Positions 12,119 through 52,420 of a stretch of 64,000 nt of DNA are shown here, piece after piece (the first letter of the stretch is position 1; every line of letters starts with the position of its first letter). The notes below the pieces were generated by a model. The model had not been told where the DNA came from. It did no database searches and saw only the letters and a list, made by a program, of their open reading frames with translations. Made by a program: the position numbers and the translations under genes. The stretch comes from Candidatus Saccharimonadales bacterium. GTDB taxonomy: Bacteria; Patescibacteriota; Saccharimonadia; Saccharimonadales; JBBQAJ01. The stretch spans positions 3,174 to 67,173 of the forward strand of contig JBBRAK010000004.1 of NCBI GenBank assembly GCA_038206875.1. The letters run 5' to 3'.

Positions 12119-12733
12119 GTGAAAGCATTCATTACCAGAAAAGTCGGTATGACTAGCACCATTTCAGAAAATGGTGTTATGCAGGCTGTAACTTTGCTTT
12201 CAGCTTCACCCAATACAATTACGCAGATTAAGAACGACGAAACAGACGGATATATGGCAATTCAGATGGGCATGGAAAAGGCCAAAAAAATGGGAAAATC
12301 ACTCGCAGGACATTTCAAACTTTCCAAAACACAGCCCAAGGTCACTCGTGAGTTCCGAATTACAGAATCCCAAGAAGACCTAAACGTCGGCTCGCAACTA
12401 GCAGCCGACGTTTTTAGTGTAGGGGATATTGTGCACGCAACCGGCACTAGCAAAGGAAAAGGTTGGGCGGGCACAATCAAGCGACACAACTTTAATACGG
12501 GTCGTAAAACACACGGTGGTGGTTCATATAGACGACCTGGTTCCATTGGTCCCATGTACCCCCAGAAAATTTTTAAAGGCAAAAAAATGGCCGGCCAAAT
12601 GGGAGACGAACAAGTAACGGTTCGCAATCTAAAAGTCGCAATAGTAGACACGGAACTGGGCGTGATTGGAGTCACGGGTGCTGTGCCCGGACCGCGAAAA
12701 GGTATTGTTTTGATTCGAGGAGCTACAAAATGA
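12119..12733 (+). CDS. rplC: 50S ribosomal protein L3
   Basis: GTG start behind GAAGGAAG. ITRKVGMTS..., GTSKGKGWAGTIKRHNF. Confidence 0.97.
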   Translation: MKAFITRKVGMTSTISENGVMQAVTLLSASPNTITQIKNDETDGYMAIQMGMEKAKKMGKSLAGHFKLSKTQPKVTREFRITESQEDLNVGSQLAADVFSVGDIVHATGTSKGKGWAGTIKRHNFNTGRKTHGGGSYRRPGSIGPMYPQKIFKGKKMAGQMGDEQVTVRNLKVAIVDTELGVIGVTGAVPGPRKGIVLIRGATK

Positions 12734-37891: not shown

Positions 37892-37977
37892 TGGTGCAGG
37901 GTGTAGGATTCGAACCTACGAAGGCATAAGCCGACAGATTTACAGTCTGTTGTGTTTGACCGCTTCACTAACCCTGC
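37892..37977 (-). tRNA. tRNA-Tyr (GTA), long variable arm, CCA encoded
   Basis: Manual fold: acceptor GCAGGGT/ACCCTGC, anticodon loop CTGTAAA, T-arm GTAGG TTCGAAT CCTAC. 86 nt. Confidence 0.93.
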
Positions 37978-37978
37978 G

Positions 37979-38148
37979 TATGGAGCCACCTGTCGGATAT
38001 CGCACGGCTACGCCGTACTCCTTCCTGCGATGCTCGTAAACAAGAAATATATTTCATGTTTTCTGCGCTTCTCGTCCGCCGAACCTTCGGTTCTCATCAG
38101 ATCATTCGCATAATTATTGTAACAAGTATTTACTTCTTACAATAATTA
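37979..38148 (-). repeat. insert downstream of tRNA-Thr(TGT) ending in an exact 18-20-nt copy of the tRNA 3' end
   Basis: TATGGAGCCACCTGTCGGAT (37979-37998) is identical to 38147-38166. The identity breaks inside GATATC, at the same T-loop position as the Tyr-linked insert. Confidence 0.75.
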
Positions 38149-38149
38149 T
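38110..38149 (-). other. long AT-rich hairpin immediately after tRNA-Thr(TGT)
   Basis: ATAATTATTGTAA (38110-38122) / TTACAATAATTAT (38137-38149), a perfect 13-bp inverted repeat. Confidence 0.6.
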
Positions 38150-38225
38150 GGAGCCACCTGTCGGATTCGAACCGACGACCTACTGTTTACAAAACAGTCG
38201 CTCTAACCAACTGAGCTAAGGTGGC
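38149..38225 (-). tRNA. tRNA-Thr (TGT), CCA encoded
   Basis: Manual fold: acceptor GCCACCT/AGGTGGC, anticodon loop TTTGTAA, T-arm GTCGG TTCGAAT CCGAC. 77 nt. Confidence 0.93.
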
Positions 38226-38243
38226 ATGTAACAGTTCTAAAGT

Positions 38244-38270
38244 GTAGCAAATACTCAGTATTTTTGCTAC
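38244..38270. promoter_or_regulatory. palindrome between the divergent tRNA genes
   Basis: GTAGCAAATACT C AGTATTTTTGCTAC (8-12 bp arms) in the 64-nt divergent promoter region. Confidence 0.3.
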
Positions 38271-38289
38271 TATGCCTTGGTTAAATTTT

Positions 38290-38364
38290 GCCGTCGTAGC
38301 TCAGTGGTAGAGCATCGCCATGGTAAGGCGGGGGTCAGGAGTTCAAGTCTCCTCGACGGCTCCA
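38290..38364 (+). tRNA. tRNA-Thr (GGT), CCA encoded
   Basis: Manual fold: acceptor GCCGTCG/CGACGGC, anticodon loop ATGGTAA, T-arm AGGAG TTCAAGT CTCCT. 75 nt. Confidence 0.93.
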
Positions 38365-38367
38365 GTA

Positions 38368-38396
38368 TTGCATAGTACATCCTAATCTGTTAAAAT
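38368..38396 (+). promoter_or_regulatory. rpmG promoter
   Basis: TTGCAT (38368-38373), 17-nt spacer, TAAAAT (38391-38396). ATG lies 10 nt downstream. Confidence 0.55.
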
Positions 38397-38406
38397 CTAA
38401 TCCCAT

Positions 38407-38610
38407 ATGGCTAAAAAAGGCGGAAAAAGAAAGATAATTGGCTTGGTGTCGGAAGAGTCTGGGCACAGGCACTATTACACTCGTAAAAACACTATGAACA
38501 CACCCGACAAACTTGAACTCAAGAAATACGACCCAGTACTACGGAAACACGTTTTGTACGTAGAAACCAAAAAGTCTCTAGGTCGTAACGAAGTAAAGAA
38601 AAAGAAGTAA
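38407..38610 (+). CDS. rpmG: 50S ribosomal protein L33 (Cys-free type, Lys-rich C-terminal tail)
   Basis: [34 protein letters not shown]. Confidence 0.93.
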
Positions 38611-38709
38611 TATAGCAAACTTGGGTAAGTATTTTGTTTTTTAGCAGACGATCAAGCTAATGACAAAACATCGTAAATCGGCTATGATAACTCCGTACGA
38701 TGACACTAT

Positions 38710-38786
38710 AGGGGCGTAGCTCAGCTGGTTAGAGCGTTGGTCTCCAAAACCAAAGGCCGCGGGTTCGAATCCCTCCGCCCCTGCCA
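38710..38786 (+). tRNA. tRNA-Trp (CCA), CCA end encoded
   Basis: Manual fold: acceptor AGGGGCG/CGCCCCT, anticodon loop CTCCAAA, T-loop TTCGAAT (one C-U mismatch in the T stem). Confidence 0.88.
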
Positions 38787-47245: not shown

Positions 47246-47947
47246 ATGGCAGTTTACAGCAATATACAGATTAAAAGAGCAATCAAAGACGGTCACATTG
47301 TGTTTCACCCGTACAATGAGTCTCACATTGCCGGAAGTAGCGTAGATGTAACTTTAGGGGAGTGGTTTTTCCGCACGGAAAGGCCCAGCGAAGGTGGATT
47401 CTATAACCCTTTTTCCAAACAAGCTGTCAAGCAATATTTTGGGGAAGTATTACATGCCGAGATTCACAAAGATTGGGCAGAAAAAAACGGTCGTAGAATG
47501 TTTGATAACATCCCACCAGAACAACCAATAATTGTCCTGAGACCAAAAGAACGAATCTTGGGCCATACCAATGAATTCATAGGTATAAAAGCCCCTGGCA
47601 CAAGTACCATGCAAGCACGTAGCACATGGGGCAGAAACGGTGTTGCGGTTTGTTTAGACGCCGGGTGGGGTGACCCAGGGTACATTAACCGCTGGACAAT
47701 GGAAATATACAATATGAACGAGCACGAAAGTGTTGTACTTCCGGTAGGTGAACGGATAGCACAAATGGTGTTTTATGAAACTGGCCCTGTTGACAGCGAA
47801 TACAAGAAGCTCAGTGGAAAGTACCAGTCAGATAAAAGTGAAAATTTAGAATCAATAATTGCCGACTGGACTCCCGAACAGATGCTTCCAAGAGCATATA
47901 ACGACGAAAGAAAACTTCCGGAGCCAATTAAAGGTTTAAAAGTATGA
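47246..47947 (+). CDS. dcd: dCTP deaminase / dUTPase-superfamily protein
   Basis: MAVYSNIQIKRAIKDGHIV, SSVDVTLG, LDAGWGDPGYINRWTMEIYN, GERIAQMVF. Confidence 0.8.
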   Translation: MAVYSNIQIKRAIKDGHIVFHPYNESHIAGSSVDVTLGEWFFRTERPSEGGFYNPFSKQAVKQYFGEVLHAEIHKDWAEKNGRRMFDNIPPEQPIIVLRPKERILGHTNEFIGIKAPGTSTMQARSTWGRNGVAVCLDAGWGDPGYINRWTMEIYNMNEHESVVLPVGERIAQMVFYETGPVDSEYKKLSGKYQSDKSENLESIIADWTPEQMLPRAYNDERKLPEPIKGLKV

Positions 47948-50295
47948 TGTCCAGCAACGGCGAAATTAGCCGTGGAACATTTGTCGTACTTGAAGGGACT
48001 GACGGAACCGGCAAATCCACCCAGTACGAAATCTTAAAAAATAAACTACGGACAGAGGGACACGATGTTGTCGAAATGCAGTTTCCTCGATACGACGACC
48101 CATCCTCTTTTTTTGTCAGAGAATATCTGCGAGGCAAATATGGTTCCGCCGATGAAGTCGGTCCTTATACAGCCTCGCTATTTTATGCCCTGGACAGATA
48201 TCAGGCGTCGGTTGACATTGAACAAGCTTTATCTGCCGGCAAAATAGTTCTTTGTGATCGTTTTACTGGAAGCAACATGGCTCATCAAGGAACTAAGTTT
48301 ATACACGCCGAAGAACGACGTGGGTTTTTTATATGGTTGGACAATTTAGAATTTGAAATGCTGAAAATACCCAGACCAGACATAAGTCTAGTTTTGACAG
48401 CCCCGTACGAAGTAATCGCTCAGAGACTGAATTCTAGAGTTAACTCGAGTAGTCACGCAAACGGCAAAGACATTCATGAGACCAACCCAGAACACATTAA
48501 GAAATCGTTGGAAATATACAAAGACCTATGCAATCTGTTTCCCAAAGATTTTAAAGAAGTAACCGGTGTCCGTGGAGACGAAGTTCAAACAGTAGAAATA
48601 ATCAGCAAATACATATATGAGACTCTACAGCCCCTACTACCTATTAGAAGCATAAAACCACCCGCCAAAACCAGCGAAGCGAAGGTTGAAAAACAACCTT
48701 CAACAGTTACAAAAAACCCATATATTGAGAAAACTTCTGATGGATTTGAAATTTCACCGGCTGGTCAAACGTTTTTAGATTTGAGTGTTACCAACTCACA
48801 CGACAACGTCTACGCTTTTACAGATAAACTCAGTCCAACTACCATTGCGGCCGCCATGGCGAGATTGTCTAGACGAGCAGACGATATGCGAATAACGATT
48901 TTGGATGAATTCGCAGCTGCAATGGGAAAGGATGCCAAGCTTTTACAAAGAGTTATTTCCGCCTACGGTGATGATTCCGTACAACAACTCATCGGCCAAC
49001 ACGTTGTCGTTGAAAACGCCAGCAACTTACTAACAAAAAAACTAGAATGGGGTCGTTTGGCATCATATCTGGAACAGTCTACCCGATATATATATTTTGA
49101 TAAGAAAGATACTGCTGGCAAATACCGCTATTTCACACCGGAACATTTCGACGCTAAAACCAAAAAACTCTATAACGCAAGTTTAGACGAAATTTTCGAT
49201 TTATACTCAGAAATGGTCCATAAGCTCACCACTCATGTCAGGGAGAAGTCCGATGTACCCAAAGACCAACAAGATATTGCTTGGCAAGGTGCTACTAGGG
49301 CACAAGCATGTGATGCTATTAGAGCCGTTTTACCAGTTGCTACTAAATCTACCGTCGGAATTTATGCTTCGGGTCAGGCACTCGAAAGTCTTATCATGCA
49401 CCTTATGTCAGACGATTTACCAGAAGCAGTTACAGTTGGTAAACAACTTCTCGTCGAGAGTCGGAAAGTAATACCAACTTTTCTAGAGAGAGCCGACAAA
49501 CCAGACAGAGGTGGTGCAACAATTGCCTACAATGCAAATACGCGTAAAGATGTAAGAGAATTGACCAGCAAGTACCTACCAGACAGTCACTCTTCGCAAA
49601 CTGAGTCGGTTCAACTAGTTTCTTCGTGGCCAAAAAATGAACTTGATCTTGTACCAGATATGCTTTACGAACACAGTAGTCTTTCTGTTAAGGAATTGCG
49701 TTCGCAAGTAAACAAATGGTCAATAGCCAAAAAAGAGAAAGTGTTTAATGCGTATATGGGTGAGCGACTAAACAGACGACACAGACCGGGAAGAGCTATC
49801 GAGAAGGCACATTATAGCTGGGATATAGTTTGTGATTATGGCATATTCAGAGATTTGCAACGCCATCGTATGGTAGACGATATGAACTGGCAGGTTTTGA
49901 CGCCAAGATACGGCTACGAGATTCCCGAGCTTGTAGAAGAGTCCCTGCTAACCGACACATTTGAGAAGTGTTTTGACCTCAGCCTAGAGCTATACAGTAA
50001 GTTACAAGAGGCCGGATATGAGCTGGAAGCCCAATATGCTACTCTCCTAGGTCATAAAATGCGCTGGAAGGTGACATACAATGCTCGTGAGGCATTTCAC
50101 TTCCATGAGCTTCGTACAAGCCCACAAGGTCACCCAGGCTACCGCAAGCTAGTACTAAAGATGCACGAAAAGCTCGCAGAGGTACACCCCATGATGGCTG
50201 AAGCTATGAAATTTGTTAATCAAGATGAAGATCCAGCACTTACCCGACTTGCAGCAGAGCGTGCCACTCAGTTTAAGCTCGCAAACCTCAGCTAG
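47944..50295 (+). CDS. tmk-thyX: fusion of thymidylate kinase (N-terminal) with a tandem ThyX-like domain protein (C-terminal)
   Basis: N-terminal FVVLEGTDGTGKSTQ...LCDRFTGSNMAHQG. C-terminal two Thy1-like halves: degenerate (YGDDSVQQL...LEQSTRYIYF) and canonical-like (FRDLQRHRMVDD...TPRYGY; NAREAFHFHELRTSPQGHPGYR). ATGA overlap with dcd. Confidence 0.75.
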   Translation: MMSSNGEISRGTFVVLEGTDGTGKSTQYEILKNKLRTEGHDVVEMQFPRYDDPSSFFVREYLRGKYGSADEVGPYTASLFYALDRYQASVDIEQALSAGKIVLCDRFTGSNMAHQGTKFIHAEERRGFFIWLDNLEFEMLKIPRPDISLVLTAPYEVIAQRLNSRVNSSSHANGKDIHETNPEHIKKSLEIYKDLCNLFPKDFKEVTGVRGDEVQTVEIISKYIYETLQPLLPIRSIKPPAKTSEAKVEKQPSTVTKNPYIEKTSDGFEISPAGQTFLDLSVTNSHDNVYAFTDKLSPTTIAAAMARLSRRADDMRITILDEFAAAMGKDAKLLQRVISAYGDDSVQQLIGQHVVVENASNLLTKKLEWGRLASYLEQSTRYIYFDKKDTAGKYRYFTPEHFDAKTKKLYNASLDEIFDLYSEMVHKLTTHVREKSDVPKDQQDIAWQGATRAQACDAIRAVLPVATKSTVGIYASGQALESLIMHLMSDDLPEAVTVGKQLLVESRKVIPTFLERADKPDRGGATIAYNANTRKDVRELTSKYLPDSHSSQTESVQLVSSWPKNELDLVPDMLYEHSSLSVKELRSQVNKWSIAKKEKVFNAYMGERLNRRHRPGRAIEKAHYSWDIVCDYGIFRDLQRHRMVDDMNWQVLTPRYGYEIPELVEESLLTDTFEKCFDLSLELYSKLQEAGYELEAQYATLLGHKMRWKVTYNAREAFHFHELRTSPQGHPGYRKLVLKMHEKLAEVHPMMAEAMKFVNQDEDPALTRLAAERATQFKLANLS

Positions 50296-50788
50296 GGTTT
50301 AATACTGATATAACCGAAACCAAGTCCAACATTGATAATCTAGCGGCTTCGGTAGCGGGATATTCAACTCGAGGCGTTGCTTCAGATACTGCGTTATATC
50401 TTCCTAAAACTACGTCCGGTATGCGCCCAGGGTCCGCGACCCAAATATGTTCAACATCCAGTTCGTCACGTAACAAATGGGCAATCTTTTTCATTTCATC
50501 ATAGACAGCGCCAATAATGGGGACCACAGTGCCGTTTTTTTCAGTTCCAAACTGCCTCTCTGAAAATACCGTTGCATGATTTTGCATTGCAGAGTCTAGC
50601 TCTCGCTCGTACTCATCTAACTCATGATAATAATGAGGGTCGGATAGAACCTCAGCAAGATCCAATCTAAAAGGATATACTTCATCTGGTGAATTTTCTG
50701 TAAATGTATTTTCATTAAAAATACCTACACGATATTCTACAGTTCGTATAGCTTCTAACGGCGAATGTTTCAAAAATGGTACTACCAT
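50288..50788 (-). CDS. hypothetical 166-aa acidic protein
   Basis: Clean ORF with a near-consensus leaderless promoter upstream. Converges on and overlaps tmk-thyX by 8 nt. No motif recognised. Confidence 0.7.
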   Translation of the reverse strand: MVVPFLKHSPLEAIRTVEYRVGIFNENTFTENSPDEVYPFRLDLAEVLSDPHYYHELDEYERELDSAMQNHATVFSERQFGTEKNGTVVPIIGAVYDEMKKIAHLLRDELDVEHIWVADPGRIPDVVLGRYNAVSEATPRVEYPATEAARLSMLDLVSVISVLNPS

Positions 50789-50796
50789 AGTCGTAA

Positions 50797-50825
50797 ATAT
50801 TAAACTATTATGCTAATTTTGTCAA
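50797..50825 (-). promoter_or_regulatory. near-consensus promoter of the 166-aa gene (leaderless)
   Basis: Minus strand: TTGACA (50825-50820), 17-nt spacer, TAATAT (50802-50797), 8 nt, ATG (50788). Confidence 0.65.
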
Positions 50826-50867
50826 TGCTTAGATATCAACTTATCGTTTGCGCTTGTAAGAATGCCT

Positions 50868-51000
50868 TTGATAGGATAATCTACATCTATAATGAATTTC
50901 AGTCAGAAGCAAACAGCAAACCTACCTCTCAGCCCTACAAGGCTGTGCTTCAGTATGATTGAAGCCTATCCTGCCTAAACAGGAATAGCACAGTCAAACC
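50868..51000 (+). promoter_or_regulatory. structured leader upstream of the 79-aa gene
   Basis: TATAAT (50888-50893) or GATAAT (50875-50880). Stems CAGCC/GGCTG (50930-50945) and CTATCCTG/CAGGAATAG. GAAGCCT (50961-50967) is complementary to the terminator 5' arm AGGCTTC (51005-51011). Confidence 0.45.
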
Positions 51001-51025
51001 AATCAGGCTTCACAGCCTGATTTTT
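51001..51025 (+). terminator. intrinsic terminator in the leader of the 79-aa gene
   Basis: AATCAGGCT TCAC AGCCTGATT followed by TTT. Lies 27 nt before ATG 51053. Confidence 0.75.
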
Positions 51026-51052
51026 AATTTAAGTATTTTAAAGGACAATAAG

Positions 51053-51292
51053 ATGAAAAGTATAATGTTTGGTGCGGAAAGCTTTAACTGGAATTCTGAA
51101 GGATTACCCTTCTGTACTCAAGAAGTACAAGAGGCAACACAAGCGACTAAAGAAGAAATGGATAGAAGTAAAGCAGGAGATGTTGGAGGAATGGCAATTG
51201 GCAAAGTAAATGAGTCTGGAGGCTTTGACATACCAGAAACACTAAAACCATCGGATGATTTTAGGGAGTATTGGGCAAATATGATTGCTTGA
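51053..51292 (+). CDS. hypothetical 79-aa protein
   Basis: AAAGGA RBS region. No motif recognised. Confidence 0.6.
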   Translation: MKSIMFGAESFNWNSEGLPFCTQEVQEATQATKEEMDRSKAGDVGGMAIGKVNESGGFDIPETLKPSDDFREYWANMIA

Positions 51293-51317
51293 CATATAAA
51301 CGGAAACGGGGAATAAT
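51289..51317 (+). promoter_or_regulatory. promoter of the second leader
   Basis: TTGACA (51289-51294), 17-nt spacer, AATAAT (51312-51317), 7 nt, ATG 51325. Confidence 0.55.
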
Positions 51318-51324
51318 GACAGAC

Positions 51325-51378
51325 ATGGCTAAATCAATTCGAATAAATAAGATTGTCGCACCCCGCTTACGGGACTGA
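51325..51378 (+). CDS. candidate leaderless uORF MAKSIRINKIVAPRLRD
   Basis: 17 codons. The TGA stop (51376-51378) overlaps GAAGCC (51377-51382), which is complementary to the terminator 5' arm GGCTTC (51404-51409). Confidence 0.35.
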   Translation: MAKSIRINKIVAPRLRD

Positions 51379-51400
51379 AGCCATTTACTTGAATAACACA

Positions 51401-51426
51401 ATAGGCTTCACCCGAAGCCTATTTTT
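51401..51426 (+). terminator. intrinsic terminator in the leader of the 73-aa gene
   Basis: ATAGGCTTC ACCC GAAGCCTAT followed by TTTT. Shares AGGCTTCAC...TTTTTAATT with the terminator at 51001-51025. Confidence 0.75.
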
Positions 51427-51442
51427 AATTGAAAGGAGAGAT

Positions 51443-51664
51443 ATGCCTGAACATGCAATATTTGAATCAGACAGACCACTGTCAGACGGACTGGCGATAA
51501 TTCCCCAGGCAGGCGAAGTATCAACGCTGGAGCGAGATCCCGAGACGGATAGAGCTGAGCGCTATAAACGCTTCCTTGATGCACGTCCACCAACTAGTCC
51601 AGCTACTCATAGACTTCTGGGCAGAACCACAAGCATGGTTAGTGTTGAGCCTGCGGAAAAATAA
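51443..51664 (+). CDS. hypothetical 73-aa protein
   Basis: ORF track 51353-51664 runs through the terminator. Start moved to ATG 51443 behind AAAGGAGAG. Confidence 0.6.
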   Translation: MPEHAIFESDRPLSDGLAIIPQAGEVSTLERDPETDRAERYKRFLDARPPTSPATHRLLGRTTSMVSVEPAEK

Positions 51665-51683
51665 AACGCACCAATATTAGCGG

Positions 51684-51835
51684 TTGACCACGTAGTGTTT
51701 CTCTGTTAAGCTCTACTCACGTTACCAAAGACAGCGACGACTGTAAAAGGTTTGATAATGTCGCCTAGGTGCAAGCTAACTTTTTGTTTGTAAGCATGTT
51801 TTTATGGCCCTTTGGTAACACCAAAGGGCCTTTTT
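51684..51835 (+). promoter_or_regulatory. rplJ (L10) leader with antiterminator/terminator
   Basis: TTGACC (51684-51689), 17-nt spacer, TAAGCT (51707-51712). GTTACCAAAG (51721-51730) is perfectly complementary to CTTTGGTAAC (51810-51819) in the terminator GGCCCTTTGG TAACA CCAAAGGGCC TTTTT (51806-51835). Confidence 0.65.
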
Positions 51836-51895
51836 GGTAGTTTTTGGAGTTGACAGGTCGAAAACTTCATACTAAATAATCTAAAGGAGAAGCCC

Positions 51896-52420
51896 ATGGC
51901 TTTGACCAAAGACAAGAAAAATACATTAGTTACGGACATATCCGCCCAACTAGCTAGCTCTAAACTAACCGTCGTGGCTGCCTATAAAGGTACACCTGTA
52001 AAAGCTATGCAAGAGCTGAGACGCCAAGCAAGGGACAACGGAACCAAAATACAAGTTGTCAAAAACCGTCTGGTTATCAAAGCACTTCAAAACAACGAAG
52101 CAACTAAATCTATCGACACTAGCACCCTTACGGGTATGCTTTTGTACGCGTTTAACAACGATGACGAAATTGCACCTGCTCAAGTACTGGCACAGTTTGC
52201 TAAGTCGCAACCGACTATTCAGTTTGTTGGAGCAATTAACTCTGACGGCAGTCAGATGAGCGCCGAAGAAGTAAAAGCTTACGCTTTGTTACCGAGCAAA
52301 AATCAGCTTATAGCTGGAATAATCAGTACACTCAACTCACCAGTTATGGGAGTTATGAGCGGTCTAAAGGGCAACCTGCATGGGTTGCTTGACGCAGTAG
52401 CTGCAAAATCAGTAGCATAA
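51896..52420 (+). CDS. rplJ: 50S ribosomal protein L10
   Basis: AAGGAG RBS. LTVVAAYKGTPVKAMQELRRQAR. Precedes rplL. Confidence 0.95.
   Translation: MALTKDKKNTLVTDISAQLASSKLTVVAAYKGTPVKAMQELRRQARDNGTKIQVVKNRLVIKALQNNEATKSIDTSTLTGMLLYAFNNDDEIAPAQVLAQFAKSQPTIQFVGAINSDGSQMSAEEVKAYALLPSKNQLIAGIISTLNSPVMGVMSGLKGNLHGLLDAVAAKSVA

Follow-up and report, generated by a model that had tools for sequence, protein, structure and literature searches.

Why should two small protein genes, lying one behind the other and just ahead of the ribosomal protein L10 operon, each have an intrinsic terminator of its own between promoter and start codon, and what would decide whether that terminator forms? The question is raised by positions 50789 to 51664 of a 64,000-nucleotide (nt) stretch of contig JBBRAK010000004.1 (assembly GCA_038206875.1, Candidatus Saccharimonadales bacterium), the whole of which is called the window here and supplies all coordinates. 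The answer argued for below, which sequence comparison makes about 80% probable, is that the two leaders are tandem leader-peptide transcription attenuators, each with its own promoter and a leaderless mRNA that would start at a short upstream open reading frame (uORF), the first sensing leucine and the second isoleucine/valine. An earlier reading of the same letters, made without database searches (the sequence-only reading), had seen in them translation-sensing attenuators of the type found before either amino-acid operons or antibiotic-inducible resistance genes. The amino-acid alternative is borne out by covariation of an antiterminator and by codon runs that, in relatives, match the controlled gene; the antibiotic alternative has found no support, the enzymes among the relatives' cargo (as the genes behind the leaders are called here) being those of branched-chain amino-acid metabolism. 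The parts of the first leader and its cargo are as follows.

50789-51052: intergenic region 1
50855-50884, + strand: leader 1 promoter (-35 box TTGTAA 50855-50860, spacer of 17-18 nt, -10 box TAATCT 50878-50883)
50892-50978, + strand: leader peptide 1, a uORF of 28 codons, MNFSQKQTANLPLSPTRLCFSMIEAYPA and stop
50941-50949, + strand: 5' strand of a long-range helix, GGCTGTGCT, inside the uORF (codons R-L-C-F), pairing with 50987-50995 (-15.4 kcal/mol)
50947-50952, + strand: region 1, GCTTCA (codons C-F-S), which forms an anti-antiterminator hairpin with region 2 (duplex -7.3 kcal/mol)
50960-50967, + strand: region 2, TGAAGCCT, the strand of the antiterminator (uORF codons I-E-A), pairing with 51005-51012 (8 base pairs, -12.7 kcal/mol)
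50970-50983, + strand: variable hairpin CCTG..CAGG, holding the uORF stop codon TAA 50976-50978
50987-50995, + strand: 3' strand of the long-range helix, AGCACAGTC
51001-51029, + strand: intrinsic terminator 1, AATCAGGCT-TCAC-AGCCTGATT plus TTTTTAATT (hairpin 51001-51022, -11.4 kcal/mol); its 5' arm and loop, 51005-51012, are region 3
51053-51292, + strand: open reading frame (ORF) of 79 codons, cargo 1

The -10 box of leader 1 ends 8-9 nt before the ATG of the uORF and, because of this distance, the uORF is taken as leaderless, with the transcription start placed provisionally from the promoter layout. The same arrangement recurs in relatives: cTTGTCAa or TTGACA, 16-18 nt, a -10 box and then 5-10 nt to an in-frame ATG (modal gap 7-8 nt) are present in 82 of 129 distinct leader-1 copies. 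The relatives compared are 80 related genome loci, all from metagenome-assembled genomes of Saccharibacteria and the nearest of them with an L10 protein at most 83% identical to that of the window, together with at least 120 further metagenome loci recognized by the pattern GGCTGTGCTTCA-N6-TTGAAGCC; together they make 200 loci, given L-numbers where one has to be named. Some 35 of the 80 genome loci keep the segment from about 50892 to 51033 at 70-80% DNA identity (blastn of intergenic regions), and a homologous uORF is present in about 30 of the 80 and in nearly all of the metagenome loci, more than 140 Saccharibacteria loci in all, with the family consensus ..KQLLL[SG]LxGLCF[SN]MVEA. The first leader, to which the sequence-only reading had granted only ambiguous uORFs, does have a conserved, apparently leaderless one at 50892-50978. 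Third codon positions within the Leu run of the relatives vary (CTC/CTA/CTT), and selection therefore acts at the level of protein or codon. That intergenic region 1 might be a small RNA gene or a riboswitch had been considered from its DNA conservation in the absence of protein matches, an idea dropped given the conserved in-frame uORF and the promoter spacing.

How the leader RNA might fold was approached with an alignment of 30 copies and 500 shuffles. The antiterminator, TGAAGCCT:AGGCTTCA, is paired in 97% of alignment cells, a value reached by none of the 500 shuffles; three of its pairs show double-sided compensatory changes (L011, L039/L040, L015/L029), and sliding the partner strand lowers the pairing to 28-48%. 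The check on whether uORF and complementary segments persist in relatives, which the sequence-only reading had recommended, thus comes out in favor of that reading. The long-range helix, GGGCTGTGCT:AGCACAGCCC, of 10 pairs, is likewise 97% paired in the 30 sequences and varies only by replacement of G-C with G-U, on its non-coding 3' side, as would be expected with the opposite strand coding. The RNAalifold consensus consists of this helix stacked on the GCTTCA:TGAAGC hairpin of regions 1 and 2 (consensus positions 42-49 with 66-73), and all aligned relatives have a hairpin at the position of the variable one, with differing sequence and length. The pairings constrain the nucleotides and would thereby account for the near-invariant peptide G-L-C-F..V-E-A; codons lying in the loop of the region 1:2 hairpin vary freely (S/N/T/I, then M/T/I). 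GGCTGTG (50941-50947) had been singled out earlier as complementary to CACAGCC of the terminator loop and 3' arm; so it is in the window, the complementarity being absent from the relatives inspected, and the conserved partner of this strand is AGCACAGTC at 50987-50995.

Both terminators with their T-runs, as first described, were recovered by a consensus scan (51001-51022 and 51400-51423), and the platform they share, AGGCTTCA..TTTTWAWT, is present at exactly two places in the 64 kb, where shuffles predict 0.00. Upstream of each there is indeed a copy of the terminator arm, TGAAGCC at 50960-50966 and 51376-51382 facing GGCTTCA at 51006-51012 and 51404-51410. On its own TGAAGCC is not enriched in the window (11 copies, 7.7 expected). 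No other attenuator-type terminator was found across the window. The 20-30 nt from each terminator to the next ATG hold a ribosome-binding site and no promoter.

What is sensed is suggested by the codon run. The commonest gene after leader 1 in relatives is a small ORF; elsewhere it is an enzyme, either LeuA-like (two subtypes, one with HMGL and LeuA_dimer domains), a PALP enzyme resembling threonine dehydratase, or a thiamine pyrophosphate (TPP) enzyme with all three acetolactate synthase domains. Counted over the nine residues preceding GLCF, the runs before LeuA-like genes (n = 12) average 4.25 Leu, 0.25 Ile and 0.08 Val, those before the threonine-dehydratase-like genes (n = 5) 0.2 Leu, 4.4 Ile and 0 Val, and those before the acetolactate-synthase-like genes (n = 3) 1.7 Leu, 2.3 Ile and 2.0 Val. 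The clean split between 12 Leu-type and five Ile-type copies gives a Fisher probability of about 2e-4 with the copies taken as independent, a figure overstated by their shared ancestry. Such tracking of the downstream enzyme by the run is the signature of leader-peptide attenuation and speaks against a riboswitch, an arrest peptide or a gene for a micropeptide.

Codon choice in the runs is narrow. Across 132 loci (L003-L200 plus window 50916-50942) CTC, CTA and CTT together account for 90% of the Leu codons, with TTA, TTG and CTG avoided: CTC stands at 49% (background about 16%), CTA at 23% (about 16%) and CTT at 17% (18%), and ATT provides 88% of the Ile codons (42%). So restricted a set may point to one sensed tRNA isoacceptor, or to avoidance of G in the run. 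The CUCCUCCUC run was also considered as an anti-Shine-Dalgarno sequence and rejected, for its third positions vary and AUU runs replace it in Ile-type copies. Among other cargo, a serine-hydrolase-like protein of 180-187 aa recurs behind Leu-type copies of leader 1 (L084, L112, L123, L130; weak Pfam matches to Ser_hydrolase and Abhydrolase_6), and RidA-like proteins of 125-128 aa, identified by eye, are direct cargo of leader 2, the second family described below, in L110, L142 and L179, and of leader 1 in L169.

The steps proposed for leader 1 are these. With charged tRNA-Leu plentiful the ribosome would reach the end of the uORF and cover TGAAGCC of region 2, terminator 1 would form and transcription would halt before the 79-aa gene. 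A stall at Leu codons just 5' of or within GGCTGTGCTTCA would instead mask the 5' strand of the long helix together with region 1, and TGAAGCCT, so freed, would pair with AGGCTTCA, the terminator 5' arm; no terminator would then form and RNA polymerase would enter the 79-aa gene. In the absence of translation, the long helix and the region 1:2 hairpin would sequester region 2, again with termination as the outcome. The Leu codons of the window copy are CTA 50922-50924, CTC 50928-50930 and CTG 50943-50945. Simulated masking of the nascent RNA by a ribosome makes the antiterminator the fold of minimum free energy if the 5' mask ends at 50948-50960, approximately a ribosome with its A site near CTG 50943; for masks that stop at 50930-50946 the hairpin of regions 1 and 2 stays ahead by about 1.6 kcal/mol, and with the ribosome at the stop codon the terminator alone forms. 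The geometry is compatible with the classical attenuation model, the exact stalling position being a prediction of the folding calculation.

The second leader repeats the plan with different parts.

51293-51442: intergenic region 2
51289-51317, + strand: leader 2 promoter, TTGACA-17-AATAAT (11 of 12 matches), ending 7 nt before ATG 51325
51325-51378, + strand: leader peptide 2, a predicted leaderless uORF of 17 codons, MAKSIRINKIVAPRLRD and stop
51362-51382, + strand: switch strands, with region 1 CCCG 51362-51365 and region 2 CGGG 51370-51373 plus TGAAGCC 51376-51382
51400-51430, + strand: intrinsic terminator 2, AATAGGCTTC-ACCC-GAAGCCTATT plus TTTTTAATT (hairpin 51400-51423, -12.9 kcal/mol), on a platform of leader-1 type
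51443-51664, + strand: 73-aa ORF, cargo 2

Promoter, spacing, 17-codon uORF and a TGA stop (51376-51378) overlapping the antiterminator strand had all been described before and are all present. The -35 box shares letters with the stop codon of the 79-aa ORF (GCT TGA CA; 51287-51294), an overlap seen again in L003, L006, L013, L045, L026, L065 and L059, where the gene is a small ORF or LeuA-like. Ile codons stand at 51337-51339, 51343-51345 and 51352-51354, and a Val codon at 51355-51357. The family to which this uORF belongs is one of Ile/Val-rich leaderless uORFs, 19 of them in the genome loci and 43 across all DNA compared, with a run of the form IIIxII (examples of the peptides are MAQNAIIMKIIAPHTRV, MSLTSIIIKIIETRHQRD and MPQNQIIIVSIIAPDMRV); at many loci it sits behind the cargo of leader 1, with a TTGACA promoter. 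It adjoins IlvA (PALP plus Thr_dehydrat_C) directly in L022, and in L060 it precedes a small ORF, a Pfam-confirmed RidA and IlvA.

Each of the 19 leader-2 copies examined has a uORF 3' end able to pair with the 5' arm of its terminator, through sequences that differ between loci, at a median of -14.6 kcal/mol (-13.9 for the terminators) and a mean z of -2.9 relative to shuffles. Other copies have terminator stems of the CCCCGC/GCGGGG type; terminator 2 of the window shares 86-96% identity with leader-1 terminators (L021, L035, L048 and L059), and the uORF-end strand is altered in step with it, to CGGG..TGAAGCC. The window copy is thus a chimera of a leader-2 uORF with a leader-1-type terminator. 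The two leaders had been called paralogous: the terminators are, since terminator 2 resembles the leader-1 type, and the leaders themselves are not, the uORFs coming from distinct Leu-type and Ile-type families. By the scheme proposed, ribosomes stalled at the Ile/Val codons of 51337-51357 would free region 2 (CGGG..TGAAGCC) from region 1 (CCCG) for pairing with region 3, GGCTTCACCCG, at 51404-51414, and the leader would control the 73-aa ORF, with possible added read-through into the L10 operon. The CCCG:CGGG hairpin is present in the minimum-free-energy fold. The antiterminator 2 duplex has -12.4 kcal/mol and, with a ribosome stalled at Ile 51352 and masking to 51367, the antiterminator becomes the minimum-free-energy fold (-15.2 versus -13.5 kcal/mol for the terminator fold). 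Comparison of alternative-fold energies was another check suggested at the outset, and in the window the antiterminators match or exceed the terminators.

What, then, of the cargo? Both ORFs do have the AAGGA-type ribosome-binding sites described earlier, AAGGA at 51041-51045 for the 79-aa ORF and AAGGAG at 51433-51438 for the 73-aa ORF, and neither protein has a Pfam match. With tblastn in the 200 loci the former gives only sub-significant positional matches and the latter none. That both are orphans, as had been supposed, nevertheless fits the 73-aa protein only. The 79-aa protein carries a C-terminal module, NESGGFDIPETLKPSDDFREYWANMIA (the C-terminal peptide being DDFREYWANMIA), which is a partial match, lacking the PY residues, to [VI]PYxG[TS]E[GS]xxD[IL]P..P..[FY][WR]AN[LM]PA, a module of about 30 residues common to 28 small ORFs behind leader 1 whose N-terminal parts are hypervariable. 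Module codons vary synonymously across relatives and the module is therefore selected as protein; the 19 classed ORFs that bear it follow leaders whose runs have, on average, 4.4 Leu and 0.1 Ile. A profile search with the module in 5.8 billion proteins yields five matches, all hypothetical or unnamed Saccharibacteria proteins and the query among them, and an exhaustive HMMER search of 1.84 billion representatives returns nothing but the input sequences and two proteins with tandem repeats (P0006, P0007), judged to be chance. The 79-aa protein, on this sequence evidence, belongs to a conserved, unannotated family and so is no true orphan. Structure prediction, also recommended earlier, was informative only to a limited degree: AlphaFold2 gave the 79-aa protein a mean predicted local distance difference test score (pLDDT) of 50.6 and no usable fold. 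The 73-aa ORF is presumed to be coding from its strong ribosome-binding site and its position.

The sensed residue is scarce in the small cargo proteins. Behind Leu-type leaders it has 4.2% Leu, 6.0% Ile and 8.7% Val; behind Ile-type leaders on the leader-1 platform 4.9% Leu, 1.2% Ile and 9.8% Val; the background is 9.8% Leu, 5.7% Ile and 6.8% Val. For the shortage of Leu behind Leu-type leaders p = 4e-24; for that of Ile behind Ile-type leaders p = 2.5e-9 versus background and 1.7e-7 versus the Leu-type cargo. The Ile contrast between the cargo groups is specific; the Leu depletion may in part reflect the composition of disordered proteins. The 79-aa protein itself has two Leu in 79 residues (2.5%). 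Some leader-2 small ORFs have another C-terminal ending, [IL]xLG[QEGS][EDN] followed by the stop (L013 2522-2794, L015 2414-2785, L029 2479-2766, L053 2347-2592, L147 and L163), and may represent a further small-protein family controlled by Ile-type leaders; the 73-aa ORF has ..HRLLGRT.. 13 residues from its end, no clear match to it.

The case for attenuation in the window, then, is made by uORFs with codon runs, terminators with no promoter between them and the genes, a covarying antiterminator and, in leader 1, an anti-antiterminator. Cargo from the metabolism of the sensed amino acid is what relatives have (LeuA-like, IlvA, acetolactate-synthase-like, RidA), and what the window has is two small proteins without known domains. 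Several observations weigh against the attenuator interpretation. The Leu run of the window is degraded (L-P-L-S-P-T-R-L, with three Leu codons and two Leu-to-Pro changes, where relatives have four to six Leu), and of its Leu codons CTG 50943 only is placed for a stall to favor the antiterminator. In leader 2 the three Ile codons and one Val codon are non-consecutive, and the anti-antiterminator is weak, either the 4-base-pair CCCG:CGGG or a pairing with the 5' end seen in the window only. There are no branched-chain enzyme genes within the 64 kb and neither leader precedes a biosynthetic gene; the 73-aa ORF has no detectable relatives. As to composition, Leu is low also in the Ile-type cargo, and the Ile depletion of leader-2 cargo is mild, 4.4% as compared with 5.7%.

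Could the pair be relics of lost branched-chain operons, with the leaders and one or both ORFs decaying and no meaningful output? This fares best of the rivals and is still improbable. It would draw on the degraded Leu run, on the missing biosynthetic genes, on a 73-aa ORF without homologues, on a chimeric leader 2 that occurs in the window only, and on the close relatives L002 and L003, which are without one or both leaders. Decay sits poorly, however, with promoters, uORFs, antiterminators, terminators and ribosome-binding sites that are all intact in the window, and with a 79-aa protein that retains its C-terminal module, a module that varies synonymously in relatives. Nor would dead sequence be expected to show small ORFs as the commonest cargo and these poor in the sensed residue.

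Much less probable is that the leaders are stand-alone genes, for a hydrophobic micropeptide or a small RNA of about 130 nt, with the hairpin a mere terminator and the ORFs expressed independently. The strong conservation of the peptide ..LLLSLxGLCFxMVEA could be read that way, and work on Sinorhizobium (PMC7298713, PMC7968998) describes trans action of terminated attenuator RNAs and of leader peptides. Yet the pairings explain the conservation of GLCF..VEA while codons between vary freely, the hydrophobic run changes between Leu and Ile with the downstream enzyme, and the gap of about 25 nt from terminator to ATG has a ribosome-binding site and no promoter; a trans role could add to attenuation and would not replace it. 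That the uORFs are nascent-peptide arrest sequences sensing an antibiotic or small molecule, as with erm, cat or tnaC, is very hard to credit, for despite the shared order of short uORF and then structure the relatives' cargo is LeuA, IlvA, acetolactate synthase and RidA with no resistance genes, no resistance or methyltransferase domain is found in the small proteins by Pfam, the peptide varies in its codon run and that run fits the cargo, and control is by an intrinsic terminator rather than by sequestration of a ribosome-binding site. Equally hard to credit is a metabolite riboswitch in leader 1, with the junction of long helix, region 1:2 hairpin and variable hairpin binding, for instance, leucine: the three-helix junction is conserved and its core near-invariant, but that core lies inside a predicted translated leaderless uORF, specificity shifts with the codon run and not with the junction, and a cmscan search covering 50750-51900, with E allowed up to 10, finds nothing beyond the L10 leader and chance matches, with no amino-acid leader, riboswitch or T-box family among them.

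Tandem attenuation, the interpretation preferred here, has its textbook counterparts in the Proteobacteria (trpL, leuL, ilvL/ivbL, thrL, hisL, pheL). Common to both are a uORF in which codons for the sensed residue form a run, mutually exclusive 1:2, 2:3 (antiterminator) and 3:4 (terminator) pairings, a stop codon sited so that the terminating ribosome covers region 2 and, in the relatives, cargo of the order of leuA, ilvA and acetolactate synthase. Unlike them, the present leaders have no similarity in sequence or to an Rfam model, their uORFs appear leaderless rather than Shine-Dalgarno-started, the anti-antiterminator has three helices, closed off by an additional long-range one, and one RNA platform bears Leu, Ile or mixed runs with small proteins without assigned role as its usual cargo. 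Cultured Saccharibacteria usually have an actinobacterial host. It is in Corynebacterium, Mycobacterium and Streptomyces that the nearest described systems are found: leader peptides and terminators are reported before ilvB, leuA and trp (PMC1262725, PMC3890552, PMC11857589, PMC10272879), with actinobacterial leuA mostly preceded by a LEU pseudoknot element (PMC1262725). There too a leader peptide and a terminator precede branched-chain genes, in a Gram-positive group with many leaderless transcripts; the sequences and structures differ from those here, which have no Rfam match, and the actinobacterial leaders control full biosynthetic operons. With the T-box the likeness is of one RNA platform re-targeted by a few specifier or regulatory codons and read out as terminator versus antiterminator, the difference being that the T-box is untranslated and binds uncharged tRNA, whereas here, it is proposed, a ribosome reads the codons. 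The adjacent L10 leader (RF00557) is also a leader with a terminator but protein-binding, autoregulatory and separate. A search of the literature on Saccharibacteria, Patescibacteria or the candidate phyla radiation (CPR) together with attenuation, leader peptides or uORFs turned up no relevant report.

For the rest, the neighborhood is as follows.

47246-47947, + strand: dCTP deaminase
47944-50295, + strand: Tmk-ThyX fusion
50288-50788, - strand: 166-aa orphan ORF, divergent from leader 1
51707-51844, + strand: ribosomal protein L10 leader RF00557 (54.3 bits, gathering threshold 44), a separate element before rplJ/rplL
from 51896 and from 52442, + strand: rplJ and rplL

The fusion protein, of 783 aa, joins thymidylate kinase to ThyX (thymidylate synthase complementing protein) and has near full-length tblastn matches of 57-79% identity in several related Saccharibacteria loci. 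The 3' end of the 166-aa ORF overlaps the end of the fusion gene by 8 nt, and the promoter of that ORF, TTGACA-17-TAATAT (50825-50797), ends 8 nt 5' of the ATG, so that this mRNA too is probably leaderless. The ORF has no Pfam match except one weak and below threshold and no tblastn match in the 200 loci; unrelated minus-strand ORFs occupy its position in other relatives. A whole-window Rfam scan at gathering threshold gave the L10 leader and four tRNAs, these last in an ordinary cluster at 37892-38786 (Tyr-GTA and Thr-TGT on the - strand, Thr-GGT and Trp-CCA on the + strand). A strong terminator-like hairpin at about 12380-12415 (+ strand, -16.2 kcal/mol), with a 100-aa ORF and its ribosome-binding site at most 60 nt on and no upstream uORF, is probably an ordinary inter-gene terminator.

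What is new, if the leaders are what they appear to be, two new families of a known mechanism with unusual cargo? The phylum is, as are the leaderless uORFs, the three-helix anti-antiterminator and the exchangeable runs on one platform. The chief novelty would be that small uncharacterised proteins are the usual cargo, in a lineage whose cultured strain TM7x is reported to be without most de novo biosynthetic pathways (PMC12815258). The families are large, with at least 120 metagenome loci for leader 1 and 43 copies of leader 2, and recognisable by sequence alone, and so offer an annotation rule for hundreds of Saccharibacteria intergenic regions. A constant platform with exchangeable runs is, moreover, a natural system for the study of how attenuator specificity changes. 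A more tentative thought, for which we would not claim even odds, is that Saccharibacteria, which draw most of their building blocks from a host, have retained Leu and Ile attenuators and re-use them as supply sensors, with biosynthesis no longer the main output, for small, probably disordered, starvation-induced effectors that are themselves poor in the limiting residue and dock by the ..F[WR]AN[LM]PA motif to a partner in the cell or in the relationship with the host. On the attenuator reading itself, these reduced genomes would monitor the charging of tRNA-Leu and tRNA-Ile, and small unannotated proteins become candidate starvation-response genes in organisms poor in biosynthesis. For cultured strains it leads to a question: how does the epibiont respond when the leucine supply of its host stops?

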